DNA of 64,000 nt from Clostridia bacterium (GTDB lineage Bacteria; Bacillota; Clostridia; Christensenellales; UBA1242), in NCBI GenBank assembly GCA_045588915.1, contig JAZNFA010000002.1, positions 12,878 to 76,877 on the forward strand. The letters run 5' to 3'. The translations under genes and the position numbers were made by a program. A model generated the notes under the pieces. The model did no database searches. It was given only the letters and a program-made list of their open reading frames with translations, and was not told the DNA's origin. Below, piece by piece: positions 1 to 42,496 of this stretch; the stretch's first letter is position 1, and the number at the start of each line of letters is the position of its first letter.

Positions 1-177
1 ATAAAATTTCAATTCGGAGTTTTTTGTGAAGTCAGCGACTTTGTAGGTGGTTTTTTCGACGCCGACAATTTTATATGTATCTTTTGCAAAAAAGTTAAAG
101 TAAACATATATAATAACACACGCAAGTATAAGGGCAATTGCACCACAAATTAAACCTATTTTAACGCCGCGTTTCAT
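1..177 (-). CDS. Hypothetical N-terminally membrane-anchored protein, 5' part only (continues past left edge)
   Basis: Not in the ORF track because it is partial. Reverse strand has ATG at 177-175 and reads MKRGVKIGLICGAIALILACVIIYVYFNFFAKDTYKIVGVEK... open to position 1. AGGAGG (190-185) lies 7 nt upstream. ATGA start/stop overlap with the upstream 170-aa gene. Same basic-TM-beta-rich layout as that neighbour. Confidence 0.5.
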   Translation of the reverse strand, partial: MKRGVKIGLICGAIALILACVIIYVYFNFFAKDTYKIVGVEKTTYKVADFTKNSELKFY

Positions 178-686
178 TTTGCGACCTCCTTATTGAAAAT
201 TAAAATAATAACTTCGTAGGTTAGTTCCTTAATGTCGGTTGGATTTTGTGTAATAATGTCTTGGACACTGTGTCTTTCGTTACTCTTGATGTAAATGCAT
301 TCTTCTGTGCTGACGGCTTTTAGATGTTCAATGATGGTTTCATCACCTTTGTTAATAATATATTCAAATTCAATCACTGTTTCTTTCGGGCCTTCTTTGT
401 AACTTGTGACAATAAAAGCAATTGGTTTATCGGTAGCTGTAAAGCCTGCCAAATAAAGATTACCAGTTTTTTTGTCGTGTTTAATTTCAAAGTAGCTTGA
501 CTTATTTACTGTTGCACCTTCAAATCGTTCAGTTTCGCGAATTTCACTTAAGTAGTATTTTGTGCCGAATTCAATTTGGCCAACGACTTTTCCTTTATTG
601 ACAAGAAAGTACACAACAAAGCCACCAGCTATGATGGTGGCTATCAAGACACATATAAGAATAATTTTAATTGCTTTGCGATTCAT
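174..686 (-). CDS. Hypothetical N-terminally membrane-anchored protein (170 aa)
   Basis: ORF track. One N-terminal TM helix (IKIILICVLIATIIAGGFVVYFL). The start lies 20 nt inside the end of the 897-aa gene. No recognisable motif. Confidence 0.6.
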   Translation of the reverse strand: MNRKAIKIILICVLIATIIAGGFVVYFLVNKGKVVGQIEFGTKYYLSEIRETERFEGATVNKSSYFEIKHDKKTGNLYLAGFTATDKPIAFIVTSYKEGPKETVIEFEYIINKGDETIIEHLKAVSTEECIYIKSNERHSVQDIITQNPTDIKELTYEVIILIFNKEVAK

Positions 687-3339: not shown

Positions 3340-3424
3340 TTTGATTTTCTCCATATACAATATATGGGGTTAGTTTACACTAAAAACCCCCTTTTTAGCA
3401 AGGAAAAAACTTTTGTGTAAGCCC

Positions 3425-3459: not shown

Positions 3460-4959
3460 ATGTTGAAAGTTGCAATTATGGAACTGGGCACAAATCAAAT
3501 TAAATTGTCGATTGTGCGCATTGAAGAAAATAAATATTTTGAAGTGGAAAAGGAGTATGCAGAAAGCGTACGAATTGAACAACATTTACAAGAAAATAGT
3601 GAGTTAGTTAAGACAGTAAAAATTAAAGAATGTATTAACATCTTGCAAATGTATAAACAGATTGCCATTGCCAATGGTGTGACAAAATATCACTGTGTGG
3701 CTTCAGCCAATATAACTAAAGCAAAAAACTATGTTTCTTTCTTGGAAGAGATTAACTCAGATTTGGATTTGGAATTTAAATTGTTAACTGAGGAAGAGGA
3801 AATCAATACACTATATACAGCAGTTGTTAATACAATTGATATTGCTAAAGGGTTAATCGTTTCAGTCGCTTCTTCAAGTACTCGTTTGGTTTATTATTGT
3901 CGTCGTGTTGTGTTAAATAGTGCGACTGTTCCGATGGGGGCAGCAAACTTTACCTCGCTTGATGAGTTTAATAATCTTTTAAAAAGTGCAGGGGAATCAT
4001 TCGAACAAATTGATCCGGAAATTCCAGTGATTGGTTCCAGTGAAATCTTTACTGGATTTGCACGCTTGTCACGTAAGAAAACTAAATACCCTTTTGATTT
4101 TGATCATAATTATAATAGCGATAAAAATCACTTTAATGAAATCTTAAATTTCTTAAAAGGTTTAGATGTTGAACGTGGGGCAAAGTTAAAAGGAATTACA
4201 GCAAATGGAATTGGCTATTTGATGAATGGTATGTCTATTGCTTTGGCTGTAATGGATTATGTAAATTTAAGTAAAATTGTCATTAATCGTTATGGACGTA
4301 ATGTTGGAATTGCTTATCGTTTGACAATGCAAGAAGATGAACGTCCAGTGAATGATGTTTGTATGAGTAGTTTAGAGAACTTAATTTGGGCAAATAATTT
4401 GGATTTGGAAAATGCTAAGTATCAATATCTTTTAGCAAGTACTTTATACTCACAATTAAAAGTCTTACATAAATTGCCTCGTGTTTATACTCGTGTTTTG
4501 AAAGCGGCGACACTCTTGTTTAATTTGGGTGCAAACATCAATAAACAAAATTTTGGTAAAATTACATATTATGCAATCTTGAATTCAAATCTGTATGGTT
4601 TAAGTCATAAGGAAATTGTGATGGCGGCTTTTGTGGCAAGTTGCCGTAACTGGGATGATTTTATGTTGTCAGAGTGGGTTAAGTATAAAGACTTAATGAG
4701 CGATGAAGATTTGATGATTGTTCGTAAATTAGCAGTGATTGAATCAATGGCCTATATAATTAATTTACGCAACCAAAAAGTCGTTAAAGATATTTCCTGT
4801 GATGTTTTGGGTGATAGCGTTATTATTAAGTTAATTACTGATACTGATATGAAAAATTTAAAAGTGGATATTGACGCTGCAAAAACTGAAATTTTCCAAT
4901 TGCAAAAAATCAGTAAGGAATTTACTCGTATTTACCAAAAAAACGTGGAAATTTTGTAA
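3460..4959 (+). CDS. ppx: Ppx/GppA-family phosphatase (exopolyphosphatase / pppGpp phosphohydrolase-like)
   Basis: 499 aa. N-terminal sugar-kinase-fold signature (AIMELGTNQIKLSIVRI, compare IDxGSNSxRL). Length fits a Ppx-GppA domain plus a C-terminal helical/HD-like domain. Confidence 0.7.
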   Translation: MLKVAIMELGTNQIKLSIVRIEENKYFEVEKEYAESVRIEQHLQENSELVKTVKIKECINILQMYKQIAIANGVTKYHCVASANITKAKNYVSFLEEINSDLDLEFKLLTEEEEINTLYTAVVNTIDIAKGLIVSVASSSTRLVYYCRRVVLNSATVPMGAANFTSLDEFNNLLKSAGESFEQIDPEIPVIGSSEIFTGFARLSRKKTKYPFDFDHNYNSDKNHFNEILNFLKGLDVERGAKLKGITANGIGYLMNGMSIALAVMDYVNLSKIVINRYGRNVGIAYRLTMQEDERPVNDVCMSSLENLIWANNLDLENAKYQYLLASTLYSQLKVLHKLPRVYTRVLKAATLLFNLGANINKQNFGKITYYAILNSNLYGLSHKEIVMAAFVASCRNWDDFMLSEWVKYKDLMSDEDLMIVRKLAVIESMAYIINLRNQKVVKDISCDVLGDSVIIKLITDTDMKNLKVDIDAAKTEIFQLQKISKEFTRIYQKNVEIL

Positions 4960-5759
4960 TGGAACAAACACCACCAATTTTAGAATTTTTTGACGATGAG
5001 CCAGTGATTAGCCCGTTGACGATGCAGGATAAGCCTGTGATTTTAGCACCACAGATTAAAACTGCTATTTGCACATTCCTTTGTGAAAATATTGATCATA
5101 CAATTTTAGAACCTATATTGGCGAATTCGCACTTGTTATTTTATGTTTATGGACGTACTGGAAAAATACCTGTTTTCCAATATAAGGATGAATGCTTAAT
5201 TGTTTTAATGACTGTGGGAAGCCCTGTGGCTGTTGCTGTGGTGGAGTATTTAAAATGTATTGGAATAGAAAATATTATTGCTTACGGAACGGCAGGTTTG
5301 TTGGATGAGCGTGTGCCAGATACGGCGTGTGTTTTAATAGAAAAAGCAATTCGTGATGATGGTGCTAGTTATCATTATTTACCAGCCTCTGTCTATGTGG
5401 AAACTGATAAGCATTTGACAGATTGGCTGGAGTGTTTTTTGTGCAATCGCGAAATGCAAGTTGTGCGTGGAATTACTTGGACAACAGATGCAATGTTTCG
5501 TGAGACTTCGGCACAGGTAGCAAGGCGGCGTCAGCAGGGGGCAATAACAGTGGAAATGGAATGTGCAGGTTTCGCAGCAGCTTGTCTGCGTTTAAAAATG
5601 CGTTTTGCTGAATTTGTATTTTTTAGTGATACGTTGGTTGATGTTAAGAATTGGCATATGTTTGGCGATAAAGAACAACATAATGAACGTCGCTCGTTAA
5701 AAGTGGTATTATTACAATCTTTATTAAATGATGTACAAAAAATAGACTTGCCTAATTGA
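4959..5759 (+). CDS. Nucleoside phosphorylase family protein (PNP/UDP-like)
   Basis: 266 aa. Motifs YGTAGLL, DDGASYHY and VEMECAGFAA are typical of PNP_UDP_1 enzymes. TAATG stop/start overlap with ppx. Confidence 0.65.
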   Translation: MEQTPPILEFFDDEPVISPLTMQDKPVILAPQIKTAICTFLCENIDHTILEPILANSHLLFYVYGRTGKIPVFQYKDECLIVLMTVGSPVAVAVVEYLKCIGIENIIAYGTAGLLDERVPDTACVLIEKAIRDDGASYHYLPASVYVETDKHLTDWLECFLCNREMQVVRGITWTTDAMFRETSAQVARRRQQGAITVEMECAGFAAACLRLKMRFAEFVFFSDTLVDVKNWHMFGDKEQHNERRSLKVVLLQSLLNDVQKIDLPN

Positions 5760-7788: not shown

Positions 7789-7817
7789 TTGACGATATCA
7801 AATATTAAAATTATAAT
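7789..7817 (+). promoter_or_regulatory. Canonical promoter of the 2,622-aa gene
   Basis: TTGACG (7789-7794), 17 nt, TATAAT (7812-7817). This is followed by TTAACCATACTA and the SD block GTTGGGGGAAT (7831-7841), then ATG 7846. The same blocks recur at 20148-20214. Confidence 0.65.
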
Positions 7818-7845
7818 TTAACCATACTATGTTGGGGGAATACAA

Positions 7846-15714: not shown

Positions 15715-16503
15715 TTATTCAATACAGTAACAGTTACCGATTTGACTTTGGAGAGCAACATCAATAAAGATGTCTTTACCTTCAATAATATTTTGTGTTT
15801 GTAGGTATTGCTTTACTGTCTGATAAGCAAGTGTTGGTGTATTATTCTTTTCACTTAAGTGTGCAAGAATAACTTGTGAAACATTCGCTTGGTAAAGCTT
15901 TGCAATTGTACGGCCACAATCTAAGTTGGAAAGGTGTCCACGATTGCCAAGAATGCGACGCTTTAACCAATCTGGGTATTTGGGATTTGCAATTAATTTT
16001 TGAATGTCGTGATTGCTTTCAAGTATAACAATTTGACATGTCGCCAGATGAGAAATAATTATATCAGTCATCTGACCAATGTCGGTGGCAATGCCGACAC
16101 TTGCGTCGCCACATTGAAATGTATAACCTAAACAGAAATTACTATCGTGAGGAACAGGAAAACAATTAACTGTAATATCACCAATCAGGAAAGTATTTTC
16201 GGTTTCGATAAAGTGGTGTGGGGGAATTTTTAAACTACGCTTCAATGTTTTCGTGCTCGTATGATGACAATAGATAGGTACATTGTATTGAGTTACGAAA
16301 TCGGCAACGCCCTTAAGGTGGTCACTGTGTTCGTGGGTGATGACAAGCCCCGTAATGGAGTTTGGTGATATATTAGCTTGGCTCATTAGTTTTAATATCA
16401 TTGATAAAGGTAATCCAGCATCAATCAAAATGCCTGTTGTGGAATTTCCAACATAGGTTACATTTCCTGCGCTACCACTACTTAACGTTTGGATTTTTAG
16501 CAT
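15715..16503 (-). CDS. MBL-fold metallo-hydrolase (YycJ/WalJ-like)
   Basis: 262 aa. HEHSDH (HxHxDH) motif. N-terminus MLKIQTLSSGSAGNVTYV is typical of this subgroup. Confidence 0.8.
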   Translation of the reverse strand: MLKIQTLSSGSAGNVTYVGNSTTGILIDAGLPLSMILKLMSQANISPNSITGLVITHEHSDHLKGVADFVTQYNVPIYCHHTSTKTLKRSLKIPPHHFIETENTFLIGDITVNCFPVPHDSNFCLGYTFQCGDASVGIATDIGQMTDIIISHLATCQIVILESNHDIQKLIANPKYPDWLKRRILGNRGHLSNLDCGRTIAKLYQANVSQVILAHLSEKNNTPTLAYQTVKQYLQTQNIIEGKDIFIDVALQSQIGNCYCIE

Positions 16504-20147: not shown

Positions 20148-20176
20148 TTGACGGTTAGTCATATAAAAAATATAAT
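20148..20176 (+). promoter_or_regulatory. Canonical promoter of the 6.7-k-aa gene, paralogous to the 7789 promoter
   Basis: TTGACG (20148-20153), 17 nt, TATAAT (20171-20176). Followed by TTAGACATACTA, a 16-nt purine-rich insert, and GTTGGGGGAAT (20204-20214). Confidence 0.65.
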
Positions 20177-20219
20177 TTAGACATACTAGAAGAGAAGAAA
20201 AACGTTGGGGGAATCACAT

Positions 20220-35200: not shown

Positions 35201-38200
35201 GGTAACTGCTAATTTCCACAACCAACAAACTGATGTTGGCGCAAATCTCTTTGGTTCAGGTAAAGAATATTGTCAACAAACATTGTATGCTAAAGTCGAA
35301 GGTGCAGATATTTATTATGAACAAGGTTTTGGTACAGCAGGTGCAATTTTCGGGTTTGTTACATCTAATCCAAATAATTACCGTATAGTTAATTCAAATG
35401 GTACTGAAGAAATTGTAGCTCGTAAATTTGAAAAAGAAATTATTAAACAATCAGCAGATGGTGAGATTTATTACCAAGACAAGCCACATAGCTATAATAC
35501 AGAAAAAACATGGTTCTTAAAAGATCGTATGGGTAAGGAAATTAATGATACCAATGTTTATTACAGAGATATCATAGTCTTACAAAATGTCGGTGGTGCA
35601 GTTAAAGATGTTTCGGCTAATGTTGCTGGTGGTTTAATCGGTATTATGGATGAAACCATTCACTTGCAAAAACCAAATCTAGTTAGCTTGAATAGTTTGA
35701 GTGGTAAATATTACTTAGGTGGTATCGTTGGTATTAACCTTGGTAAAATTTCTGGTGAGGTTGCTAAGAATAATGAAGGTGTTGTAACAAGTACGTATTC
35801 GACGGCAGATTTAGGCTCAAAATGGACAGTTTTAAGTTCATCAGGTGAATCATATGTTTACCGTGATAATAACTCAGTTGAAAATGCAAATAAAGTTTGG
35901 GGTATGACAGTTGGTGCAATTGCAGGTTCTAACGATGGTTTCTATGGAAATATTAACAGTGGTGTCATTGAAAATATTCACGTCAATGTTAATGTTTTAG
36001 GCGCAAGCAGTAGTACTAAACAATATGTAATTGGTGGTGTTGTTGGTGCTAATGGTAACTATGGTTTAATTGATAATGCAATTAACACCAATAATACGGT
36101 AGCCTTAAACACAGTTCGCGTTAACGCATCGCAAGTACAAAAAATTGGTTATTACTTTGGTCAAATTGTTGGTTACAGTAGTGTTACAAACAGTTCATTT
36201 ACTGGTACTAACACAACTCGTATGACATTGTTACAAGTTTTAGTTCCAGAAAATTTAGGTAAATCTTATGTTAATGCTGAAGATTTCTCAACAAAAAATT
36301 ACAAAGGCGAGATTTCAAATGCTTTTGGTATTGTTGATGGTGAAACCTTAAAAATGCAAACAATGACTTTGGAAGAATATAAAAAATATTTATTAACAAC
36401 CATCACAAGTAAAGATTTGGCTACACGCGTGGAAATGTTAGAACCATGGTTACGTAGCCTACCAACAGTAGTAACTAAACGTTATATGTCAGATGGTCAA
36501 GAAGTTCGCGTAGAGTTGTTTGACGAAAGTGCTAAACAAGAATTATTAAATTGGATTACTGAAAATCAAATCTTCGAAAAATGGGATTTCCAACATCAAA
36601 ATCTAACAGGTAAAGCAATGTCGAATTATAAGAGTTACATTGCTTACAGCTCTGTCAGTGACAAATTATCAACAGTTGAGAGTGAAAATGACTTTATTGA
36701 TAACATCAATAAATATCGTCAACAACGTTATAACAATGCTTATGAGTTCTTCACATATCAATACCGTGTCAGTGGTGGTATTTCAAGCGCACATAATATT
36801 GATTTCACATGGGATCAATATGAAAAATATTTATTATTCAAAAAATATGCAACTTCAACAGATGTTGCAACAGGCAGTGATTTATATATAAAATTGAGAG
36901 ACACGTATAATGAAGATTTTGCTAATATGGTTTATCCATATAATGTCTGGGCTGAATATGCAACGGTTAAAGATAAAAATGGTAACGATACAAACCAAAA
37001 ACAAGTGGTCATTATTAACAACAATAAGATTTTCTGTGAAATGGTTGCTGGTTTAGAGAAAGATAATAGCCTTAAATTTACGAACAAAGACCCATTGCAA
37101 ATTTACATTAACTATACTGTTCAATCAAGATTGGAAGAAAACCCTTTTGCTCAAATGCAATTAGCACAATATTATTATTATATGGGTAACTTGTATGGTC
37201 AAAGATATGAAGATTATGGTTACTCTGTTCCTGGTAATTTCGAAGCAACAGGTGGCAAAGGTTACAGTTCATACTTGTCTTTGAATGCATTGTTTGAAGG
37301 AAACACGGCAGCATTATTAACCGTTTCAGAATTTATTTATATGATGGATCACGAAGAAGAAATCGTTGTATCGAACGAATTGGCATGGGTTAAAACAGGA
37401 CACTTAGGTGGTGGTAACGCTCGTATCAGCAGTATTGGTGCGTTAGAACTTGGTTGGGTAAGCCAAACAGGTTCTTACAATAACTCTGAATTGAATTGGA
37501 AAGATAATTATCAAGATATTCAAAACGCAATTACAGAAAAAGATGGCGTAATTTCATATACAAATAACAGCAATACTACGTATGAATGGAAGGCTTTGAA
37601 TAATTATATAACTGCAAAAGTTAGTGCTGGTTTGACAATTGCCAAATATAAAGAAATTATTACTTTGGGTGGTACTTTGTATGACTTGATCAATAGTTAT
37701 CAAAATGACGGTACAAATGCTACAGACGAATATATTTTTGCTTTGAAAGCTGAACAATATAATTGGACACAACAACAAGCTAGTTTTGTTAAAAATAATT
37801 ATGCTGTTTCAAATGGTACAAATGTTACCTATGATATGCAATATGCCTTGTCGGCAACCACTTATGGTAATGTCATCACAACATTGGCAAATGGTAACGT
37901 CCGTGCTGTGTACAAAACTGATGCTCAACATCTTGATGTTAATAATAATTGGTTTACTGATAACAATGGCGACGGCATCCAACAAGCTGGTGAGCCAGTT
38001 GGTATTTATGCGTTCCCACCTTATGACGGCAACACACAATTTGTCAATGGTGATGGTCAAGTCTACTATTTCTTCAGAGCAGAATCTTATGTTTTGGGCG
38101 CGCATGGCAATATCGGTGCAGCAATATATATCGACACAGACGGTAATAAATTATTCGGTGAAGTTGTTGTTGATGAAGGAGCATCGCTTTCTACAGGAAC

Positions 38201-40412
38201 ATTCAAAGCTGGTAAAGACATATTGATTTTGTATAAAGTGGAAGACAGTGCAGGTGCAGATTTCAGCCGTCGAGAAAAAGTTAATGATATCGAAAAAACC
38301 GTATACTACAAAATTGCACGTCAAGTGACCCAATGTGAGCGCGTTGTTACATCAGATGGTGTTGAAGCGACAGATAATAATTCCGATTATTTGGAAGAAG
38401 CGCTTTGGTGGAAAAATGAAGGCTTCAGCGCGACAGAATTTGATAAGATTAAAGCACACGCGATGACAAAATCTGTACCAGTGAGTGGTCGAGTTGATTC
38501 AACATACACGAATCGTGCTGCTGGTTACACATTGGCAGATGACTGGAAATATGGTAGTTTTGGGTTCAAATCGGACAAATTCACCACGGCAGAATATGTG
38601 GAAATTGTTTTGGGCGCACAATACCAAGGCGAAACGTGGAACAGTACCTACGCCGACTATTTGATTTTTGTTCAATTGTACAATGCGCCATCCAATGGTG
38701 TTAAAACGATTGATACGTCATTTGGTGGTAAAAAACCGAGCACAAGTCATTATGTTAACCCATTTAGTATGTATGGTGATGGTGAAAGTGATTATTCTCC
38801 AACTTTCATTGGTCAACTTGCTACCGAAAATGATTTAGCCGAAGCCATTGAATTTGCTTCAGACCGTGCGGCATTCTTGGCGTTGTTCCGTGCAAAGCAT
38901 ACAGCAGCAGATTATATTCATTGGGCACATGACTTTAAATATCAAGTATGGGATAATAAGGATAAATTATATTTAAATAAATTCTTCCGTTTGAATCATT
39001 ACATTTATTATGTCCAACAAGGTTTGGATGAAAAATTGGGTACGTACAGTCAAGAAGCATTTGCGCCAGATGACTTCAAATGGGTATTGAACCAAGAAAT
39101 TCGTAGCGATATTTTCTATAATGGCGTTACGCAGGAAGCACGTACCACGGATTTGGTGGAATACCGTATGAATTGGTACAATAACGGCGAACCGTTTATG
39201 ACATACCGTGATTATTGTGAATGGATCAATATCTATGCGTACAATGATGATTACAGTAATGACCGTGGTGATATGCCGGAAGTTGATGTGGGTACTGGTG
39301 AACCCACGGAACAAAAATCAACCGAAGGTTGGTTGACCATTGATGCGTTTGCTGTATGGAAACGTATGGAAAAATACGAAAACAATGTGGAATATTTGGC
39401 AAAAATTGGTGGCACAACCGACCAATCCGAAATTTTTGCACCGATTTTGAAACGTCAAATCAGTACCACAGTTTTCCCAAAAATTAAAAATAGTGGTGAA
39501 CGCGAAAAAGACGAAAAAACATATGTCGAAAAGGGTGATTATGTGTTGAAACAAATCACTGAACCAAAAGTGATTGATAATGTTGATGTAATTGAATATG
39601 AGACTACGGCTGTAAAATATTATGATTGGGATGATAATTTAAGTAAAGATGACTATGATGCTAACCGAATGGATCCTAACCATCAACGTCATTTCCTTGA
39701 TCGATATGAATATAACGAAAGGTATAATATCAGAGAAATCAACCGCGGTTCAATCGGTGATGATTCCAGTACTTCGAATATGTATAGTAATGCTACAAAC
39801 TATATTAATGATGCAAAATTTGCCAAGGTTTGCGATCATGAATGTGGTGGTAAAAGTGGTATTGACCCAATAGAAACTCCAACGCTGTGTACCAATTCGA
39901 CGCACGCAGCGTATCAGGTTATCCAATGGAATACACGATATGGTGTTGGACGTTGGAGTGGAAAAAAACATAACGGTGAAGCTTCGGTTATGTATGTTTT
40001 AAAACTTGATGAGTCTAAAATTACATCAGAAAAAATTGATCAGTATACAACAGGCATATGGTGGTGGAAAGAGACACATGAAATTACTATGAACCATCCA
40101 GAGAAGGAATATGCACAATTGTATATACCATTTGATTACTTCAAACGCGCATGTCAACAAATTAAATCCGTTTATTCGTCAACCAATGGTTATGCAGGGT
40201 ACTTTAATTATATGAAATTCTGGGCAAGAAATGGTGGTTATAATTGGATTTGTGATTTCAGCGAATATGACGGTCCACGTACCGGTGTGCACGAAGTTTC
40301 GAAAACTTATTTGGAAACGGCATTCTGGAATAGTTATGATGGCACAAAAACACCATTGAAAGATCCTAACGCAAATACAAAAGCCATTATATGGCACAAA
40401 GAAGACAAATAA
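20220..40412 (+). CDS. Giant surface protein (about 6,730 aa): N-terminal anchor, Ig-like region, 11-unit novel repeat array, GLUG beta-helix modules, aromatic-rich C-terminal region
   Basis: Single uninterrupted 20.2-kb ORF. The track start is TTG 20205. I prefer in-frame TTG 20220 (MKKRGLASLLIVSIIAIAAVFGVVFAF) because GGGGGA lies 8 nt upstream, matching the 7846 gene. The protein has no C-terminal hydrophobic segment. A strong terminator follows immediately. Confidence 0.85.
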   Translation: MKKRGLASLLIVSIIAIAAVFGVVFAFQNSGRDKDVYGSATITVDKPNIELEIELKKDETADKKFTIVETDMSSAYFTITVGGLPESADRGVELNESSISSGVVTVSRVTPRDESGKTGINQFKVTGQNGGAPVTMVFTAVGGRTINVNVNVKLVAQDMKIAPKSHFGLRQGGDGLNLMSADVLNKFIFFAHPDDDERVFTPNNFPIEYKLKEQYPGVILQQGSIAVSSQATHTNQYIYVQAKLPGMTEWLDIPFYVFPEVKNILIDTNATETTRDKVWDLIANRTEFSAANFSFALDCVTTETSDYGFIIESSDTQVVRVDYIDQYQRSLSTVKNLGEVAIKITAYPIIKVNNNEIAFSGSGDANVQVKDVIYVRVRNEFYLESEADIYGKESFVLATDKESVNAFYYEGKFYDGVSFDTFTLDTANGKLVNVDNDVEFELEVVDDIGDRTGVYGWNADNNPGKVGLYSILQIGYWSDEVNDWVMLSGTPENYYANYHNRFCIAFMQTGDAENFLSDNMTLTLRIKSVSELTVGGYASCSVNLDVTSAIDKFQVENLAQFDDGSLGVALVYDVKHQDFSVEEVDVFGMFANANPNGEVVYSYSKKWNTAKVTDNSKDLPFVISASDYNSDELKSHFVRYTITANDVSPIEYYKDYPLTIGYPNGKSYTLNIRVYPTVESLSLSVISNSKGKIYHSIMDSEDTAYDYVRTAYVRKGYTYEFAVDTQGVSVGAYAVFEQITDASGKIIANTTTSMFDARRLQEGLYECLVSLHAYSDSVFAENETEITVYLIVVESVGNVILPSEIELEGITDSAEIALGLTTMNSETITDFNYLRIEVAEPVNKNVIVEQGTGEKYNSFNITAQYLVENTFKVGFKIYKSYNFPAKYDLDGLSWTENLPFELYYIGGNLVTVDVKIKNENPNKIELVSEKIKNIDGVGNYLELISENGKIVEQEIDVKVDSKANYQDFGIGFAEWKNGQFVISAFSVNNNEIAIANCAVARFDAEKSKVYIKAVEGATSLGAYALVVYASDSLRYVDVNLDGDDLVLPDVYQMVSLYIGSKETVEETVEELVSENIHDANSGNLNTRGSYNWILPSTEPTDLYAALFYTDGQDVYGSSIKANVYYIDDLYTVLGWNALAKPERMIITKYVNNVAIGSLTKTDSERLNLDLNYVFNKDTNDDDNFYSRNGTTVHYTISAAGRVMTFYIVESIAAFDVSVKSASGSGLVSRKVLTPSQNTNRIDSVTMQRGNEFSFTSNLSVYSGWKMQNKDFDSSSTAYVSYAGGLYSFYPYIEFTTTNGTTHCFNLDALTSKVQVKVKGGVSYLNIAQDSIVLDGVTTAIYDLTMRVDQENWSPSILNYSFLYDGIYYNLFEDNQTISYVNMEGGKSKLEFKLTCLNADSPVYSNLYYTYYLKIEVAVVILVPDVNPFYNISGARLIITENLNNSPLLDIKTPASDFSALSLTKQGINNVTMAHFADTEPVAANRSAVTLVSGQSDAGIIYLDEKSVGGILVVYPTLYYINVSNINLWTSQPHTEKVLIGTDLSGKPIYDTVVYTIGFTQMIYNQDDKFYQPYVSGSSMPKMVSSWSKAEGYKWDGKYYFKTSIISNSQFSHRLPDGTSFGISVSIQGESNAKAIVENMNLVAKYRDSFVVTPDDNVGDYAVCTMTQTQHQAIGTTGVYDIAFPSDCIPNYADFTFNGISSTNKTIDSKYATITIDSVARTLSVYLKGDVSAIGESLEVRIPYKRPGDYVNPYLSVVIVPVYFEFDEIEVINHYETCLQITRDELTQLKYRALFEYDTSMLSSSMSEKMAAFNYSLQTSDLVRYNYETVGKVTIEIAYSYVNGVPVITKNGAYRYARTYNYEFKQNALIKRTEYLAVGTAATYTFENWNPLHINNLYLEDALTNSKNIENYWDKNLKTQNRNTVLITISLENKSSDENSLAYEELVKAGKIVINVFSNVDVRAPQLELTIIPVWFTFDEFKLQKNPVNPLVALSTPTVLTVEAGNIVCVEDSNVTKALNAFNVELTNAQNYLSDNNALSFSRVANEDGILNFSFNSNTRAITRTDAANPVTATSYLLVSAGISYVNGVPTLDRNGTQISTYFPVRTFGNDVGESDNLLPDLEVAPNGRTRTVAQAIGTSVRYNISLSGVAYDSLLDKYEIRADGNYVWSKDFAWDVVFSFKENIITVNLDKNTELFDKLLSIRAYDRNGALVYVLNIIPAYYTVEQILLADHIDENPIMIKNTDNWLMDLSLDFASSHSSESFPGFDLERSKREFLLTLNSSSLVSRLDDAGFVTVFAGVTYEGGIPSLVNLVNAKTVVQNTYRYLLVDGVPENTKAQALGQEVIYNVNRTVTVGAIKISTGKDSEGNDIWEVYDSGNYQNWWIENDTNPRRIKVGLNESTDLIGNLIRIGIWGNVNDDEPSYILNIIPAYFTVDDLTVVGQSTEDRDIHLYYGEEKDSPSDVVFDAVYGKYSMSSALNVPALLSSFVQELQDTKSNLIERQYDTSLASGDLHIVVYLDYQNGKPTLVDSATESEFIIRIDVDFTYTIYGKPAPEGDLPPMPSEPRSRTEVQAIGTKATYIIDLDQDVSLDVSDLRYDDAKLQERGWKVTLEDNIVTVELLADAAETLLKNDIVLNFYSSYESIFILTIQPVLFEVIGVETIYPEQPIDLTDRNVNDIYYRAVAKYNDAVEYNGDKVIEFIKAFNTKLNSERNGLLEVETVDQYLKINIALDYGVTGSNYRRVPSLLEVESYPLNVVESYVEFSVATERSNVASRYQAVGTTEFYYLGVEFDDISELFVSVGGSIVTDGSVVAQVIPYGNSFALKVSIAPSANLVGQNIIVAISGSRNFTMTIKPVWFVVEGFDVINHPERHLWLITSDTFAEKIDNLTFRVRARYSFDGDADFQTALRAQIDSFNQQLVEKISDLETYTVGAEYLVVRAGIDYQNGVASIINIEKAKPTQVVRDVFKYVRYSDKIAGTNMARPNIPRSRTVEVAIGKSATYTVDFPDLAQGFTDKMISLYENTDKEKADDDSALVKYENGTNGWSVKVVDNQLQIILEPNADLVERELKVFIYYDKNHVKDAPNSFDNENVAFILTIHPVWFKVVDFALNGYVDDVINVDSIDDFMEELAQFNTNTYFMPVYEYSNDVLNDSESGAILQEKMHAFTKDFKQSTFVSRTRVRESATIYHFQVSASVNYQAYEGTAKLSSDFTTHLSRSFKVVVGDTAVEQRVESQAIGTKKTYYIDSSIMDAITSIPDGSNYRVTWNSKEKNYVTVELTNTASVDVPVNVVISNNFTLKINPVYYEILGFETVDHPERAVWVISPLTTKDLRYRAITTEIEQSLSNEVKNEIKNKIEELNLSLNSGSAPISINVDSNENIVIDAAVNYVDGYPEIVEITKDKRNVVESIIPYRIWSVNIRPIPDRPTVVGSTAANQIIGGTKKYTLKNIRGQVFYQFLWVENAGDIVTSFSNSINGTLQTYENLSILVDPVKGTLEVQLVANTDCLKNNIRICIPYLTTVNGKDVWYSHCIEITPLLFELKGWTIQAADEGVAASQLIQNENNEDYLLLTNTSNSITVIKYVAKIKASETTDPSVLRSINLAKQNIENAAAQYITPTVTSENIGFGNMTLRRNVAANVKTDNVVGLSTYIVYENGVPRLVEKSKTLVSNQILISTGYGKDEWNEKVGDTILSSGFANAVQVIGTSAAYVVEIADAGKIFADQITVVDQITQEKIVIDGEQSDLVTVKTEVSDDNSNIVLYVDLAPVIALRNYNVEIKIPYADEEDATKANYVYSYCVTPVLYTIDGFYLDYAENNYIDLANKDIPLVLHVQATYSDDVKVRNMVNLLLQDFELALNRSIVNGQIEFVVENINGGKNVRIESFGGNVWIQKIADKDVDTLDYIKSSIEIGYNGGVPQIGSVNPLTDSVVNITLQAGTQFSQASGFPGWEYIESQDKGSQHLQSIGTSRNYPIDVTADNNITLYYEYIEVFDGGLNSGENEYEFFAVNVVNPGRQNLMLGFTLRSSARILTQWIDVRIPYTQDVDGKIEWGYYSLKIKPVLFEIKSWKLKVDGELVDSVTLDDAAVELYFSPEIVSGPLDQIHYTLDELNYINNAIRRLELEINTYDPRISDGYTYMVINNTAQEGHQVNYTIFRENSTNTSYFLRDSSDESTTVMQLSANIAYGVNDFSKEFVEGAQAVTSYSNSENAKRVTGQISVYTTKQSNSTTASDRSTVFITQDNASLLMKLNENVDYILMSDIYLFKIPGLTNGKWKPVDFPSNATLDGNNHKIYFNNIGFDLSDNPNEIGLFKIIPTDSVIKNVQIVLEHGVDDPNTASINEGITVLEANLENYGAGAVNVGLLAGINNGIITNCAILSEWQFTMRDLSKIVNPTLGNNEKFKSDLPFNKDGYMFDDKYFYKLNADHTAVEQVYNEFGYGITKNETTGVWEIEYDQWHNVKNWITPDRTVVAHYDDYSPIMQKFNPLENNQSEGDTTNKFAIIDSVSAAKFYVYANNKELSVTLGGLVGTNSYMITNSRVLIDVELYGPKDTTNSSAMDEVNVLDSIVGGIVGVNMGTITTSYYRDGTVTNNANADTLQGHTSLLGGFVGQNNGIIQQSYAMGRSTERERSINHISTAGAVKTIRNSLGGFVHLNSGTITDCLVNMVIYKTGTEGSAGGFVYQNTSKGVISNCIENNNIILQSGGTFDYYSPFVVINGDKDPGKIVTTNLSNLIYAGNAESISFSADWDGVLKHLSNNSTLKYDHIANYEGFSMGMDNSDVISADNTIWEMTELGPVLRAANEIAISYRKYTWNSSPYLYNPGTEKNPYLVWTEDQFNDYVYGATPQATQADKETRVTNIEKNRQNNHLRLVDNVTLNGIKDTYKIIYTGTFEGNGLTMDGIGLDTVTNDLAVMGLFGKTEYATIRNINFGIGNINSTARYVGGIAGIAINTDFVDVKVSSSKSNEVIKGANIVGGFVGLNVVNDSEVENYNLYGSVSVTANFHNQQTDVGANLFGSGKEYCQQTLYAKVEGADIYYEQGFGTAGAIFGFVTSNPNNYRIVNSNGTEEIVARKFEKEIIKQSADGEIYYQDKPHSYNTEKTWFLKDRMGKEINDTNVYYRDIIVLQNVGGAVKDVSANVAGGLIGIMDETIHLQKPNLVSLNSLSGKYYLGGIVGINLGKISGEVAKNNEGVVTSTYSTADLGSKWTVLSSSGESYVYRDNNSVENANKVWGMTVGAIAGSNDGFYGNINSGVIENIHVNVNVLGASSSTKQYVIGGVVGANGNYGLIDNAINTNNTVALNTVRVNASQVQKIGYYFGQIVGYSSVTNSSFTGTNTTRMTLLQVLVPENLGKSYVNAEDFSTKNYKGEISNAFGIVDGETLKMQTMTLEEYKKYLLTTITSKDLATRVEMLEPWLRSLPTVVTKRYMSDGQEVRVELFDESAKQELLNWITENQIFEKWDFQHQNLTGKAMSNYKSYIAYSSVSDKLSTVESENDFIDNINKYRQQRYNNAYEFFTYQYRVSGGISSAHNIDFTWDQYEKYLLFKKYATSTDVATGSDLYIKLRDTYNEDFANMVYPYNVWAEYATVKDKNGNDTNQKQVVIINNNKIFCEMVAGLEKDNSLKFTNKDPLQIYINYTVQSRLEENPFAQMQLAQYYYYMGNLYGQRYEDYGYSVPGNFEATGGKGYSSYLSLNALFEGNTAALLTVSEFIYMMDHEEEIVVSNELAWVKTGHLGGGNARISSIGALELGWVSQTGSYNNSELNWKDNYQDIQNAITEKDGVISYTNNSNTTYEWKALNNYITAKVSAGLTIAKYKEIITLGGTLYDLINSYQNDGTNATDEYIFALKAEQYNWTQQQASFVKNNYAVSNGTNVTYDMQYALSATTYGNVITTLANGNVRAVYKTDAQHLDVNNNWFTDNNGDGIQQAGEPVGIYAFPPYDGNTQFVNGDGQVYYFFRAESYVLGAHGNIGAAIYIDTDGNKLFGEVVVDEGASLSTGTFKAGKDILILYKVEDSAGADFSRREKVNDIEKTVYYKIARQVTQCERVVTSDGVEATDNNSDYLEEALWWKNEGFSATEFDKIKAHAMTKSVPVSGRVDSTYTNRAAGYTLADDWKYGSFGFKSDKFTTAEYVEIVLGAQYQGETWNSTYADYLIFVQLYNAPSNGVKTIDTSFGGKKPSTSHYVNPFSMYGDGESDYSPTFIGQLATENDLAEAIEFASDRAAFLALFRAKHTAADYIHWAHDFKYQVWDNKDKLYLNKFFRLNHYIYYVQQGLDEKLGTYSQEAFAPDDFKWVLNQEIRSDIFYNGVTQEARTTDLVEYRMNWYNNGEPFMTYRDYCEWINIYAYNDDYSNDRGDMPEVDVGTGEPTEQKSTEGWLTIDAFAVWKRMEKYENNVEYLAKIGGTTDQSEIFAPILKRQISTTVFPKIKNSGEREKDEKTYVEKGDYVLKQITEPKVIDNVDVIEYETTAVKYYDWDDNLSKDDYDANRMDPNHQRHFLDRYEYNERYNIREINRGSIGDDSSTSNMYSNATNYINDAKFAKVCDHECGGKSGIDPIETPTLCTNSTHAAYQVIQWNTRYGVGRWSGKKHNGEASVMYVLKLDESKITSEKIDQYTTGIWWWKETHEITMNHPEKEYAQLYIPFDYFKRACQQIKSVYSSTNGYAGYFNYMKFWARNGGYNWICDFSEYDGPRTGVHEVSKTYLETAFWNSYDGTKTPLKDPNANTKAIIWHKEDK
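25150..32950 (+). repeat. Protein-level array of 11 degenerate 202-264-aa units inside the giant gene
   Basis: Anchor motif [IVL]-x-P-[VAL]-[YWL]-[FY]-x-[VFI] has its Pro codon at 25497, 26133, 26874, 27504, 28170, 28782, 29517, 30123, 30822, 31614 and 32388. Each unit also carries Y-x-[NG]-G-[VIK]-P-x-[LI] and [QA]-[AV]-[IL]-G-[TK]-x-x-x-Y (for example QAIGTSVRY, QAIGTKATY, QAIGTKKTY). No DNA-level identity between units. Confidence 0.8.
32900..36250 (+). other. GLUG-motif / right-handed beta-helix modules within the giant protein
   Basis: Two modules open with an F-x-G-x-[LF]-[DE]-G-N-[GN] type turn (ATLDGNNHKIYFNNIGF; YTGTFEGNGLTMDGIGL...MGLFGKTEYATIRNINF). These are followed by many GG[FLI]VGxN-x-G-x-I-x-x-[SC] repeats (LGGLVGTNSYMITNS, VGGIVGVNMGTITTSY, LGGFVGQNNGIIQQSY, AGGFVYQNTSKGVISNC, VGGIAGIAINTDF, LGGIVGINLGKISG). 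Confidence 0.65.
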
Positions 40413-41446: not shown

Positions 41447-41451
41447 ACTAT

Positions 41452-41481: not shown

Positions 41482-41527
41482 TAAATTATCATAAATTCTT
41501 TAATAATTTTAAAAAAATTAAACAAGT

Positions 41528-42496
41528 TTAACGTTCAAAACCTTGTTGCCTTTGTTCCATCATCGTTTTTTGACGGTGTGCCGTTTCCATCATTTGTTGA
41601 ATTTTATTTTCAATATTGCAATCACTATGTTTAAGTTCTTTGGCAGTGTAGTTGTCCATTGCGTTCCATGAATAAGTAAGTAAAGCAATATTGATAAGAT
41701 TACGTAAGTCACTGATAAACACGTCAATATTTGACTCCGAATACATTTTGTGGCTGGCGAGGTCGAGCAACCCATCCAAATGACTGGTGGTGCGACGGCA
41801 ATTACGCTCATCAACGTCTTGTGCATAATTGGTGCTGTTTAGTCTTTCGTTGCGATACCAAGCATTTTGAATACGGTTACGTTCTCGGTAATATTGACCC
41901 ATTGCAGAAGTGGAATGATTTTTATCACGATTTTTGCTGAGTCCTTCAAGGTAAGCTTCGTTAGCAAGGGTAGCGAAACACAACATAAAAGCTTCACGGT
42001 CGGTTGTTGTATCTAAGTGACGGATGACATCGGCTAAAGCATAGGCGCAGGGGATTGCAATTTGGTCGTGCATACGGTCGAAGATTGCACCTTTAGTGAT
42101 TTTAACATCGTTGATTTTAAATTTACGCAGAGTAAAGCCGCGGAAAAAATTGGCAACACTGCCACGATTGGAATATGTCTGACGAAATTTATGATAAGCA
42201 TCTTCAATGTATTTTTCACCTATATCATAATAGTTTTGAATATCTTTATCGGCAGTGAAGTGGTCAATCTTTGGTTCTTTGCCGATAAAATTGTGGACAA
42301 AGTAATTTCCATTGCCTAAACGTTTATCGTATGGTTTTGATGCCATATCTTGTGTTTGTTCTTCGAGTGGAATAACAATTTCTTGATTGTTAGGCTGGGT
42401 GCAACTGGTGAAAATAGTATTTGGTGTTACAAGTATAGTGCTTAAGATTCCGGCTTGAAAAATTTTTTTAATAACACTTTTACGTGGGGTTTTCAT
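41528..42496 (-). CDS. Lipoprotein of unknown function (paralog B)
   Basis: 322 aa. Lipobox NTIFTS-C. Paralogous to 40454..41446. Confidence 0.7.
   Translation of the reverse strand: MKTPRKSVIKKIFQAGILSTILVTPNTIFTSCTQPNNQEIVIPLEEQTQDMASKPYDKRLGNGNYFVHNFIGKEPKIDHFTADKDIQNYYDIGEKYIEDAYHKFRQTYSNRGSVANFFRGFTLRKFKINDVKITKGAIFDRMHDQIAIPCAYALADVIRHLDTTTDREAFMLCFATLANEAYLEGLSKNRDKNHSTSAMGQYYRERNRIQNAWYRNERLNSTNYAQDVDERNCRRTTSHLDGLLDLASHKMYSESNIDVFISDLRNLINIALLTYSWNAMDNYTAKELKHSDCNIENKIQQMMETAHRQKTMMEQRQQGFER

Follow-up and report, generated by a model that had tools for sequence, protein, structure and literature searches.

The window, by which we mean the whole 64-kb stretch of DNA that was analysed, carries in its first 42 kb a series of genes for anchored surface proteins and lipoproteins, interleaved with enzymes and with a VirD4-type coupling protein (T4CP) of type IV secretion system (T4SS) ancestry. 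The features are collected in Table 1.

Table 1. Genes and regulatory features of the 42-kb locus, in window coordinates.
Feature	Position	Strand	Evidence and remarks
Small N-terminally anchored protein, 5' part, running off the window edge	1..177	-	Begins MKRGVKIGLICGAIALILACVIIYVYF; translation and hydropathy scan
170-aa protein, N-terminal TM helix at residues 8-26	174..686	-	Hydropathy; lineage-specific, close clade only
897-aa surface protein, N-terminal anchor, C-terminal TM and basic cytoplasmic tail of about 45 residues	667..3360	-	TM 14-32, 831-849
Ppx/GppA phosphatase and PNP/UDP-family phosphorylase	3460..5759	+	Pfam; housekeeping, outside the conserved module
VirD4/TraG-type T4CP, two N-terminal TM helices	5785..7773	+	Pfam PF02534, PF12696, PF10412; NCBIfam NF045973
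Promoter TTGACG-N17-TATAAT, CATACTA block and Shine-Dalgarno GTTGGGGGAAT of the 2,622-aa gene	7789..7845	+	
2,622-aa giant, tethered at both ends	7846..15714	+	TM helices, AF2, synteny
MBL-fold metallo-hydrolase, convergent with the 2,622-aa giant gene	15715..16503	-	Pfam
Two tandem CPBP (Rce1-like) intramembrane glutamic proteases	16525..17100, 17090..18166	+	Pfam PF02517
TadA-like tRNA adenosine deaminase	18166..18558	+	Pfam; housekeeping
521-aa protein, N-terminal TM anchor	18568..20133	+	Hydropathy; without known domain
Second promoter/CATACTA/Shine-Dalgarno copy, 14-nt insertion relative to the first	20148..20219	+	Precedes the largest gene
Second giant, about 6,730 aa, N-terminal signal/anchor only	20220..40412	+	ORF from 20205 is 6,735 aa; without known domain
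Two paralogous lipoproteins, 330 and 322 aa	40454..42496	-	Lipoboxes; without known domain

Hydropathy scans agree with the initial annotation that five of the proteins have N-terminal anchors (the partial protein and those of 170, 521, 2,622 and about 6,730 aa), and that two of the large ones, the 2,622-aa and the 897-aa protein (given there as 890 aa), also have a C-terminal TM helix followed by a basic tail. It had seen no LPXTG sorting signal; an LPXTG-like motif ([LIVS]PX[TAS]G) is indeed absent from the last 60 residues of every anchored protein, which places them outside the class of sortase-anchored LPXTG adhesins. Pfam bears out the interleaved T4CP, CPBP pair and MBL hydrolase, and the two lipoproteins are paralogues as proposed, with lipoboxes FTGC and FTSC and 31% identity over 330 aa (E 7e-49). 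The three largest ORFs add up to the reported 30.7 kb (2,694 + 7,869 + 20,208 = 30,771 nt), and the size of about 6,730 aa given for the largest protein fits its likely start, the TTG at 20220 (MKKRGLASLL...).

It is worth adding that the locus contains housekeeping genes for Ppx/GppA, a PNP-family phosphorylase and TadA, which the initial annotation did not mention. TadA most likely starts at 18166, and is called as 130 aa in two close relatives, L088 and L089 (fetched loci are given by L numbers where they need to be told apart). At the left edge, the ORF at 1-177 belongs to a family ('c17') of 137-149 aa in relatives, with a positional orthologue at 1899-2339 in L088; the 170-aa protein matches the same family weakly (1.8e-5), has orthologues in L001, L009-L012, L014 and L015, and shows a dN/dS of 0.036 against L088. 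No credible Pfam or NCBIfam match was found for the 897-aa protein, whose orthologues are confined to loci with a T4CP identity of at least 75%.

The T4CP matches the Pfam models T4SS-DNA_transf (1.7e-49), TrwB_AAD_bind and TraG-D_C with scores of 169.4, 97.1 and 108.9 bits, against curated cut-offs of 20-22, and at 283.6 bits it passes the cut-off of 250 of NCBIfam NF045973, the CD1115 family of coupling proteins. Its TM helices are at residues 8-26 and 44-62. The Walker A (GTTGSGKT) and Walker B (LDEFGN) motifs are intact, and an alignment of 28 family members has G136-T-T-G-x-x-K142 and D464-E465 as invariant or nearly so. Its identity in L089 is 87%, equal to that of Ppx, which is a housekeeping level of conservation. 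The gap between the end of the PNP gene and the T4CP start is 25 nt, and Ppx-PNP and the T4CP are probably co-transcribed.

In the 2,622-aa giant the N-terminal signal/anchor is followed by about 2,550 aa of ectodomain and then by a C-terminal TM helix; the protein ends ...GYVILSVVLGIAGVAVLIFLRMRNKMTTK, with the conserved tail FLRMRNKMTTK. It matches no Pfam or NCBIfam family, including the NCBIfam models for Mycoplasma ICEs (MICE). AF2 models have a pLDDT of 84 for residues 30-1200 and 83 for residues 1500-2622, and both modelled halves are predicted to be all-β arrays of Ig/FN3-like β-sandwiches, followed by the terminal helix. Foldseek matches Ig-array ectodomains, GhpA and alpha-2-macroglobulin; these are generic β-sandwich arrays, among which no adhesin or binding domain was identified.

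An exhaustive profile search with the C-terminal module of the giant gave 142 matches among 1.84 billion representatives, and the full-length proteins that carry it, always as their very last part, have 2,350-3,270 aa. The module is recognisable, although neither Pfam nor NCBIfam has a model for it. Using hhalign, the C-terminal 290 or so columns of two giant groups are linked with 98% probability (E 2e-13), and giant group B is linked to the shorter c5 proteins with 98.2% probability; a match between GIANT_A and c5 was disregarded as a two-column artefact. These profile links suggest that the giants beside T4CPs in different clades share a common origin through the C-terminal module. We define here a family, as yet unnamed, of T4CP-associated, double-anchored giants, which have an N-terminal TM helix, an all-β ectodomain, a C-terminal module of about 300 aa with TM helix and basic tail, and a T4CP neighbour; the 2,622-aa protein has all of these.

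The tails of the giants have the consensus R-x-R-x-K-M-x-x-K at the C-terminus, and this basic motif is kept across clades although ectodomain identity is only 22-30%. T4SS substrates often have positively charged C-terminal signals, and the giant could accordingly be cargo, an effector whose basic tail the T4CP recognises and which is then passed to target cells. However, TM helices at both ends and an all-β Ig-array ectodomain fit a resident membrane protein, Pfam, NCBIfam and Foldseek found no toxin or enzyme domain in it, and it is far larger than known T4SS substrates, making delivery as cargo very unlikely. A basic tail is expected from the positive-inside rule alone, a point that we count against reading the giant as a T4SS arm (see below).

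The duplicated promoter and leader noted earlier for the two largest genes are confirmed. Within the 64 kb there are exactly two occurrences of TTGACG-N17-TATAATTTAnnCATACTA (7789-7829 and 20148-20188), where none is expected (100 shuffles), and both copies are followed by the identical Shine-Dalgarno block GTTGGGGGAAT, at 7831 and 20204. Ahead of the orthologous giant, the first element recurs in L088, L089, L009-L015 and L001, and it is weaker but recognisable in L004, with a -10 box TATTAT; L088 and L089 have also kept the second element in front of their second giant. Rfam and tRNA scans gave no match inside the locus, and the shared leader is therefore not a known RNA element. The idea that the giants are themselves duplicates was rejected: BLASTP and phmmer show no paralogy between them, only the promoters and leaders being duplicated, and among the giants and other large ORFs in relatives they found no paralogues other than the lipoprotein pair.

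Comparison of gene neighbourhoods was suggested in the initial annotation as a check on its module, and the outcome is divided: the T4CP and the 2,622-aa giant do co-occur, while the rest is less constant (see below). A VirD4-type T4CP lies beside or near a giant of about 1,800-2,850 aa in 31 fetched loci, with five further partial copies on cut contigs; all of the genomes involved are MAGs. Taking the window's clade as the loci with a T4CP identity of at least 62%, the giant directly follows the T4CP in all 11 of those for which 8 kb or more of downstream sequence is available, and does so likewise in L088 and L089; the copy in L001 is broken up into fragments. At 31-44% T4CP identity there are 20 further complete cases of a protein of about 1,800-2,800 aa within a few genes, every one of them with the same topology of N-terminal helix, C-terminal helix and short basic tail. 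The pairing spans 31% to 92% T4CP identity with changing flanks: the genes upstream of the pair in the window's clade are Ppx-PNP, scpAB, GT2-YfhO or rpoA-rplQ, and the upstream context in L002, L003/L004 and L007 is unlike that of the window. It is frequent and not obligatory: of the clusters with VirB4, pilin and T4CP at 36-44% identity, roughly every second one lacks a giant next to the T4CP. Judged by gene order across these loci, the T4CP and the 2,622-aa giant are a truly conserved pair. In the window's clade, as in those GIANT_A relatives that were examined, each of the two is transcribed as a unit of its own, with either a promoter for the giant or a terminator-like hairpin between the genes, which counts against the T4SS-arm reading; in L056 and L069 the genes follow each other directly, leaving no space for a separate promoter.

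Alignment with a contig of the same species, L088, shows that the identity of 98-99% drops to 82-92% across 5.8-15.5 kb, that is, over the T4CP and the giant, and drops again from 17.5 kb onward. Divergence between these strains is about 10% in two blocks, one holding the T4CP and giant and the other the second giant, as against about 1.5% in the flanks. The T4CP and giant are co-inherited as an allele block, giving a mosaic, and the loci are hot spots of strain-level diversity, as expected of interaction surfaces. The dN/dS values are 0.015 for the T4CP, 0.079 for the 2,622-aa giant and 0.114 for the second giant, indicating strong purifying selection over 662, 2,612 and 1,828 aligned codons. 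These values also bear on the idea that the genes are neighbours by chance, or the decaying remnant of a mobile element without present function. The absence of VirB4 and pilin genes nearby in the window's clade (64 kb in the window, 10 kb in relatives) and the fragmented giant of L001 would suit such a remnant, but the ATPase motifs are intact, the promoter is conserved, and the idea is largely refuted because the pairing persists across clades and is under purifying selection; we give it next to no credence.

In the distant relatives (31-44% T4CP identity) the pair lies within clusters that also encode a VirB4, a polytopic membrane protein (c1) and one to four pilins. Their VirB4 scores 585.7 bits against NCBIfam NF045975 (the Mbov_0397 family), just below its cut-off of 590, c1 is a membrane protein of the MMCAP2_0566/Mbov_0396 type, and the pilin belongs to the Mbov_0395 family (NCBIfam); L016 and L017 have tandem arrays of PF18895 pilins. 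By gene content the clusters are relaxase-less, chromosomal and of the Mycoplasma-ICE type, and genome-reduced Christensenellales (UBA1242) are among their carriers. Their flanks are housekeeping genes (Tmk, P-type ATPase, Mfd, LeuRS, NrdD), and no relaxase, integrase or transposase was found in the scanned flanks. The nearest plasmid T4CPs are less than 30% identical and lack an adjacent giant, which likewise speaks for domestication. The initial annotation had taken the gene combination for a candidate undescribed assembly or export system, a view that does not survive the finding of the pair in T4SS clusters. Of the T4SS set, only the T4CP stays together with the giant in the window's clade: the 64-kb window matches no VirB4, c1 or pilin profile, and the 10 kb around the T4CP are free of VirB4, VirB6-like and pilin genes throughout the loci of this clade, which counts against the T4SS-arm reading. 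The VirB4 and VirB6-like channel genes that would mark a conjugative element are found only in the loci of relatives.

An ordinary conjugative element, with the T4CP serving DNA transfer, the relaxase and channel encoded elsewhere and the giant as a mating adhesin or surface-exclusion protein, has to be weighed against this. The T4CP does pass the cut-off of a conjugal family, and L074-L077 have, in order, a MobP3-like relaxase, the T4CP, a large C-anchored protein, a pilin, c1 and VirB4, which is presumed to be the ancestral conjugative form. Moreover, surface adhesins are used in Gram-positive conjugation (PMC12102498), and a surface lipoprotein is indispensable to Mycoplasma ICEs (PMC6030558). 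Against it, there is no relaxase, integrase or transposase in the 42-kb locus, in ORFs scanned up to about 60 kb or in the scanned flanks of relatives, the MobP3-like relaxase being confined to the distant L074-L077 and L083. The flanks are housekeeping genes, gene order in the clade is vertically inherited, and the T4CP is apparently co-transcribed with Ppx-PNP and conserved like housekeeping genes. We consider a conventional conjugative element unlikely.

The MBL hydrolase is present in L001, L002, L004, L007, L009-L012, L014, L015, L088 and L089 and absent beside the giants of more distant clades; synteny of the hydrolase and of the CPBP pair is limited to loci whose T4CP is at least 62% identical, and could simply be inherited gene order. 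A second, independent arrangement of CPBP, then T4CP, then C-anchored protein is found in L054, L055 and L065, and outside the window's clade these are the only loci with a CPBP adjacent to the T4CP or its partner. A C-terminal motif, TM helix and basic tail are present in all T4CP-adjacent partners. The CPBPs belong to the general Rce1-like/CPBP family, with weak general similarity to MroQ, MrtS and MrtJ far under the cut-offs (for CPBP2, 27.9 bits for MrtS with a cut-off of 130, and 27.2 for MrtJ with a cut-off of 75). They may process C-terminally anchored proteins.

Most of the other genes were traced no further than close relatives. The second giant has diverged internal repeats of about 200-260 aa between residues 1640 and 3750 or so, and orthologues of 89% identity in L088 (partial) and 54.5% in L089 (7,113 aa). 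Outside these two it has no detectable relative in the fetched loci, most of which stop about 10 kb past the T4CP. A homology search with its first 1,500 aa gave zero matches, a false-negative outcome of the word prefilter in view of the orthologues in L088 and L089; its last 600 aa match no PDB sequence, and Pfam and NCBIfam give nothing credible for it. It is probably a lineage-specific surface or secreted protein. The 521-aa protein, whose gene is always directly upstream of the second giant in close relatives, evolves fast (91% identity in L088, 48% in L089). It has no family or PDB match, a metagenome scan gave 107 pattern matches with zero true relatives, and L088 and L089 have its only orthologues among the fetched loci, again mostly ending about 10 kb past the T4CP. 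Neither lipoprotein matches Pfam or NCBIfam, nor does the one compared with the PDB find a match there; they have no match in the fetched loci, L088 and L089 stopping before the lipoprotein genes. The absence of these genes elsewhere is weak evidence, because most loci are so short.

The interpretation offered initially was that the T4CP, CPBPs, MBL hydrolase and lipoproteins form a dedicated machine which inserts, processes or displays the giants. The conserved adjacency of T4CP and giant, the tripartite C-termini of the giants and of shorter T4CP neighbours, which resemble CPBP-type sorting signals, and the two independent arrangements of CPBP genes near the T4CP speak for it. It is nevertheless unlikely: in relatives, homologous T4CPs are part of ordinary T4SS clusters that include VirB4 and pilins, the MBL hydrolase and the CPBP pair are missing beside the giants of most clades, the lipoproteins, 521-aa protein and second giant were found at most in close relatives, and CPBP2 is far from MrtS and MrtJ. 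Moreover, the N-terminal signals/anchors of the giants are of the standard kind, which suggests export by Sec, and the proposed insertion or display of the giants by the ATPase finds no support here.

We favour, at somewhat better than even odds, the reading that the core of the locus is a T4SS-derived cell-contact module, the arm of a chromosomally domesticated system and not a new export machine. The core would comprise two genes of type IV secretion ancestry, for the VirD4-type ATPase and the fast-evolving 2,622-aa surface protein. The latter would be transcribed from its own strong promoter immediately downstream of the T4CP. Its N-terminal signal/anchor would most probably direct it to Sec for export, and it would display about two dozen Ig/FN3-like β-sandwich modules outside the cell, held in the membrane by the C-terminal helix with its short basic tail in the cytoplasm. 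We propose that it is the long-reach arm for cell contact or adhesion of a T4SS of the Mycoplasma-ICE type, which uncultured gut Clostridia would have domesticated in their chromosomes, with neither a relaxase nor an integrase close by and perhaps with a non-conjugative use. In this apparatus the T4CP would act on the cytoplasmic side, as ATPase and as substrate receptor, and might dock on the conserved tail of the giant. The second giant, the 521-, 897- and 170-aa proteins and the two lipoproteins would form a lineage-specific, rapidly diversifying surface coat, with the second giant co-regulated with the first through the duplicated promoter and leader.

Several known systems resemble parts of this locus. 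The grappling-hook protein GhpA of Aureispira (PDB 9fly/9flw), with its long chains of β-sandwiches, heads the Foldseek matches for the giant's C-terminal half (E 7.8e-15), but with a sequence identity of 8-9% and global TM-scores of 0.09-0.16 this is a generic likeness of repeated folds, not evidence of homology or of a shared function. The MrtS/Synerg-CTERM and MrtJ/JDVT-CTERM systems (NCBIfam) share the C-terminal motif, TM helix and basic cluster with CPBPs encoded nearby; they differ in that CPBP2 is well below their cut-offs and that most giants of other clades have no CPBP neighbour. The pBMB64-type T4SS of Bacillus thuringiensis (MobP3 relaxase, CD1115-family T4CP, TrbL, PrgI, DUF87/VirB4) has the closest plasmid-borne T4CP family, and its relaxase-T4CP order matches that of L074-L077, but the T4CP identity is about 30% over 77% of the protein, and the plasmid gene after the T4CP encodes a 127-aa protein, not a giant.

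PrgB of the Enterococcus plasmid pCF10 is a large surface protein encoded within a T4SS cluster and thought to establish cell-cell contact; it is attached by sortase at an LPXTG motif and is about half as large as the 2,622-aa giant, which has no LPXTG, is TM-anchored at both ends and has no recognised adhesin domain. Coupling proteins are understood as substrate receptors in conjugation and effector secretion. The literature searched describes no dedicated, deeply conserved giant surface partner of coupling proteins, and no prior description of T4SS or giant proteins in Christensenellales/UBA1242 was found. Gram-positive T4SSs do rely on surface adhesins (PMC12102498).

Among the closest known systems are MICE such as ICEA of M. 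agalactiae, which relatives of this locus resemble in having a VirB4 at the Mbov_0397 cut-off, an Mbov_0396/MMCAP2_0566-type membrane protein and an Mbov_0395-type pilin-like protein next to the T4CP. The comparison genes in MICE are CDS5 (T4CP), CDS14 (surface lipoprotein), CDS15/16 (membrane proteins) and CDS17 (VirB4); the membrane-protein cluster from the T4CP to CDS19 is presumed to form the channel, and mating requires a protein exposed on the surface (PMC6030558). Unlike MICE, the window holds only the T4CP of the T4SS set, the locus has no DDE transposase, relaxase or inverted repeat and lies in a chromosomal housekeeping context, and its surface partner is a 2,622-aa double-anchored protein in place of a lipoprotein.

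The pairing marks a family of chromosomal, relaxase-less Mycoplasma-ICE-type clusters in abundant uncultured gut Clostridia and Bacilli. One T4CP relative, L049 (MAG KY236-132), belongs to the genome-reduced family UBA1242 (Christensenellales), which is predicted to be partner-dependent and whose means of cell interaction are an open question (PMC12306168), and the T4CP and giant are concrete candidates for partner contact by such bacteria. The T4SS of Patescibacteria/Saccharimonadia is similar in being monoderm-type, chromosomal and relaxase-less, with tandem PF18895 pilins and a T4CP frequently far from virB4 (PMC12102498), and its hosts are genome-reduced and partner-dependent, as compared with UBA1242/Ca. 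Onthoplasma among the relatives here (PMC12306168). They belong to another phylum, however, and PMC12102498 detected no adhesins and reports no giant T4CP partner. A bolder proposal, which we regard as improbable, is that in the window's clade the T4CP and giant form a stand-alone, two-component device without a VirB4 channel, a contact sensor or tether of about 100 nm, wired through its tail to a hexameric DNA/protein-translocating ATPase and mediating both attachment to other cells and exchange with them in streamlined gut Clostridia. Such a device would be the Firmicutes counterpart of the episymbiosis-linked T4SS of Patescibacteria.

The conserved core of the locus is a pair derived from a type IV secretion system (T4SS), consisting of a VirD4/TraG-type coupling ATPase (T4CP) and a doubly tethered giant Ig-array protein of 2,622 aa (G2622). 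The initial annotation had proposed a new assembly or export system around the giant proteins. This was not borne out, as in relatives the same pair is found in T4SS clusters.

The ORF map (G+C 34%) agrees with the earlier description of the reading frames. Hydropathy scans give N-terminal anchors in the five products for which they had been described (a partial ORF at the left end, and the products of 170, 521, 2,622 and 6,735 aa), and a C-terminal helix and basic tail in the 897- and 2,622-aa products; none of the anchored proteins has an LPXTG-type signal. The N-terminal helices may instead act as signal peptides and be cleaved off; the largest protein would then be released, not tethered. 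Pfam recognises the T4CP, two Rce1-like CPBP proteases and the MBL-fold hydrolase, as expected, together with three housekeeping genes within the locus (Ppx/GppA, a PNP-family phosphorylase and a TadA-like deaminase). Neither Pfam nor NCBIfam gave a match for G2622, the second giant (about 6,730 aa), the 897- and 521-aa proteins or the two lipoproteins. The lipoproteins are indeed paralogous (31% identity, E 7e-49), and no similarity was detected between the two giants. The mechanical start of TadA is probably too far upstream; a start overlapping the stop of CPBP2 is the likely one, and it is the one called in L088 (a contig of the same species) and in L089 (a congener). To the right lie ordinary chromosomal genes (recD2, pheST, tmRNA, nusA, tRNAs). 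One ORF there joins M19 membrane-dipeptidase and M14 carboxypeptidase domains; from its mechanical start it would share about 60 nt with the tmRNA gene (tag ADKNANTFALAA), so that the true start is probably further in.

Coordinates of the features discussed
Feature	Sequence	Positions	Strand
T4CP	window	5785-7773	+
Promoter, first copy	window	7789-7829	
G2622	window	7846-15714	+
G2622 segment in tail conservation set	window	15610-15711	
MBL hydrolase	window	15715-16503	-
CPBP1 and CPBP2	window	16525-18166	+
TadA, mechanical start	window	18103	
TadA, likely start	window	18166	
Promoter, second copy	window	20148-20188	
Second giant, mechanical ORF	window	20205-40412	+
Second giant, probable TTG start	window	20220	
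Second giant, repeats	window	25217-31351	
Second giant, last ~600 aa	window	38600-40412	
Lipoprotein pair	window	40454-42496	-
M19-M14 ORF	window	49066-50706	-
tmRNA gene	window	50646-51013	
Mosaic comparison	window	1-25703	
Mosaic comparison	L088	2163-27843	
Second large ORF	L005	3-3842	-
Second large ORF	L017	1-3908	-
Second large ORF	L020	1-3023	-
Second large ORF	L023	1-3157	-

Many MAGs labelled Clostridia, Christensenellaceae or Firmicutes carry a T4CP homologue, at 58-92% identity. Neighbourhoods were obtained from exact look-ups and one scan of 185,579 species genomes, with ORFs clustered locally; the sequences used were MAGs throughout. In 31 fetched loci, down to a T4CP identity of 31%, a protein of about 1,800-2,850 aa is encoded at most a few genes away from the T4CP, usually as its direct downstream neighbour, and five further partial copies are found on cut contigs. 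These loci include MAGs labelled Acholeplasmatales, Erysipelotrichaceae and Bacillales. All complete partners share one layout, a helix at each end plus a short basic tail, with C-termini such as EPLNxxS-TM-LRKKMKIR and STFGY-TM-RMRNKMTTK, and the same type of C-terminus is seen in shorter T4CP-adjacent proteins (499-701 aa; L054, L055, L065). Profile-profile comparison unites the giant groups over the C-terminal ~290 columns with 98% probability. An exhaustive profile search found this module in only 142 proteins among 1.84 billion representatives, and nearly all complete ones measure 2,350-3,270 aa and carry the module at their extreme C-terminal end. On this profile evidence, the module-bearing giants are a small, coherent, unnamed family.

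It is also seen that the last 8-10 cytoplasmic residues of the T4CP-adjacent proteins are strongly conserved (G2622 with L005, L022, L025-L036 and L054-L077), either as C-terminal R-x-[RK]-M-[KR]-[IV]-[KR] or as RMRNKMTTK, and that a short motif (EPLN, STFGY or Y-x-[LM]-N) lies upstream of the C-terminal helix. The ectodomains of the tail-sharing proteins are only 22-30% identical. The conserved tail and motif could be a sorting or docking signal, and it is plausible, because of adjacency, co-inheritance and the conserved tail, that the T4CP binds the tail of the giant directly.

AlphaFold2, run with 26-sequence alignments, modelled residues 30-1200 and 1500-2622 of G2622 with mean pLDDT of 84 and 83, respectively. 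The modelled halves are almost wholly β-sandwich modules, followed by the C-terminal helix. Foldseek matches are ectodomains built from Ig/FN3 arrays (contactin, gp130/OSM receptors, alpha-2-macroglobulin/TEP, S-layer proteins and the GhpA grappling hook), at 8-10% sequence identity and with low global TM-scores. No enzymatic domain was seen, and the predicted architecture is that of a generic extended stalk.

The comparison of gene neighbourhoods proposed initially supports the pairing of T4CP and giant at depth, and the remainder of the gene order in part. Where T4CP identity is at least 62% (the window's clade), the order is T4CP, a giant of 2,440-2,847 aa, MBL, CPBP, CPBP, and it persists while the upstream genes vary (Ppx-PNP, scpAB, a glycosyltransferase, or rpoA-rplQ). 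Between giant and MBL, L001-L004, L007 and L015 (most of the clade's more divergent members) have a gene, absent from the window, for a ~296-aa protein with a weak ATP-synt_ab/Rho-like ATPase match; in L005 a Rho_RNA_bind protein holds this position. In L088 and L089 the gene order is preserved in full as far as the second giant (7,113 aa in L089), with TadA and the 521-aa gene before it. The 897-, 170- and 521-aa genes and the second giant were found in closer relatives only, and the lipoproteins matched no fetched locus, absences that are weak evidence because most of the fetched loci stop some 10 kb beyond the T4CP. The CPBP proteases can be linked to the module by guilt by association, with modest confidence, because they occur in two independent arrangements. 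The MBL, initially listed among the genes interleaved with the anchored proteins, is syntenic with the pair within this clade and, like Ppx, PNP and TadA, looks like a bystander. It is worth adding that L009 (CAZXAV010000001.1) and P0131 carry a Clostridia-type locus under the label 'uncultured Prevotella sp.', and are probably mis-binned or mislabelled MAGs.

The duplicated promoter and leader reported for the two giant genes proved genuine. TTGACG-N17-TATAATTTAnnCATACTA occurs at two positions only, with a chance expectation of none, and GTTGGGGGAAT comes after both copies, of which the second carries an insertion of 14 nt. The second-giant gene probably starts at a TTG six bases past the Shine-Dalgarno block, the mechanical start being likely too far upstream. 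Relatives have the element ahead of the orthologous genes too, at a coding-DNA identity of only 73-80%, which argues that it is under selection, and its duplication indicates that the second giant is co-regulated with the first.

In L089, identity to the window is 87% for T4CP, 87% for Ppx and 83% for MBL, and 56% for G2622, 54.5% for the second giant and 48% for the 521-aa protein. The dN/dS values against L088 (T4CP 0.015, G2622 0.079, second giant 0.114) indicate that all three are kept by selection. Against L088, dS differs about ten-fold between neighbouring genes, being 0.02-0.09 for Ppx, PNP, the 897- and 170-aa genes, MBL and CPBP1, and 0.33-0.81 for T4CP, giant, CPBP2, TadA, the 521-aa gene and the second giant. 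A sliding-window comparison shows two stretches with nucleotide identity of 98-99% (1-5.7 kb and 15.6-17.5 kb) and two divergent blocks with 82-92%. One block spans 5.8-15.5 kb and corresponds to the T4CP and its giant; the other runs on from 17.5 kb and takes in the 3' half of CPBP2, TadA, the 521-aa gene and the second giant. The simplest reading suggests that diverged alleles have been swapped by recombination at surface-protein loci, T4CP and giant moving jointly.

The second giant has highly diverged internal repeats of ~200-260 aa (residues ~1640-3750) with the hallmark R-T-x-x-Q-A-I-G-T-x-x-T-Y, missed by BLASTP and seen as a 48-nt DNA repeat family. Its last ~600 aa are richer in Trp, Tyr, Cys and His than the rest (local G+C 0.39), have no Pfam or PDB match, and may be a distinct globular head domain. 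A word-indexed protein search with its first 1,500 aa came back empty. This was a prefilter false negative, given orthologues at 89% (L088) and 54.5% (L089), and such results are a caution for low-complexity giant proteins.

At T4CP identities of 31-44%, the pair is frequently clustered with VirB4, a polytopic protein of 700-1,280 aa and one to four pilins in tandem. The VirB4 reaches 585.7 bits with the Mbov_0397 model, against a cut-off of 590, the polytopic protein matches MMCAP2_0566/Mbov_0396 and the pilin Mbov_0395, so that these three fall at or in the NCBIfam families of Mycoplasma ICEs; the window's T4CP passes the CD1115-family cut-off. Several clusters have a second large ORF (at least 1,000-1,300 aa, ending at the locus edge) upstream of VirB4, with no Pfam match in L005 and, by phmmer, unrelated to the window's giants. 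L016 and L017 (also L019-L023, L031 and L035), from Clostridia MAGs, have two to four diverged PF18895/Mbov_0395-type pilin genes in tandem beside the T4CP; Gram-positive T4SS classes are usually described as lacking VirB2-like pilins (PMC12102498). VirB4, VirB6-like and pilin genes were not found within 10 kb of the T4CP in the window's clade, nor in the window from 5.8 kb upstream to 56 kb downstream of it. Relaxase and integrase are absent from most of the clusters, and the relaxase-less ones are flanked by housekeeping genes (Tmk, Mfd, LeuRS, NrdD, P-type ATPase). Four loci (L074-L077) have an additional MobP3-like relaxase upstream of the T4CP, which is the arrangement of the genuine conjugative plasmid pBMB64, although pBMB64 has no giant.

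We propose that the giant would serve cell contact, as the arm of a T4SS of the Mycoplasma-ICE type that has been domesticated in the chromosome, and that the remaining anchored proteins would form a lineage-specific surface coat. UBA1242 is a genome-reduced family predicted to be partner-dependent (PMC12306168), and one of the T4CP relatives, L049, is a MAG of this family. For these Clostridia no T4SS is mentioned in PMC12102498, PMC12306168 or the literature otherwise searched, and no giant partner of a T4CP is mentioned there either. The closest analogue of the locus is found in Patescibacteria, whose chromosomal T4SS lacks a relaxase, has arrays of PF18895 pilins and often has its T4CP far from virB4 (PMC12102498).
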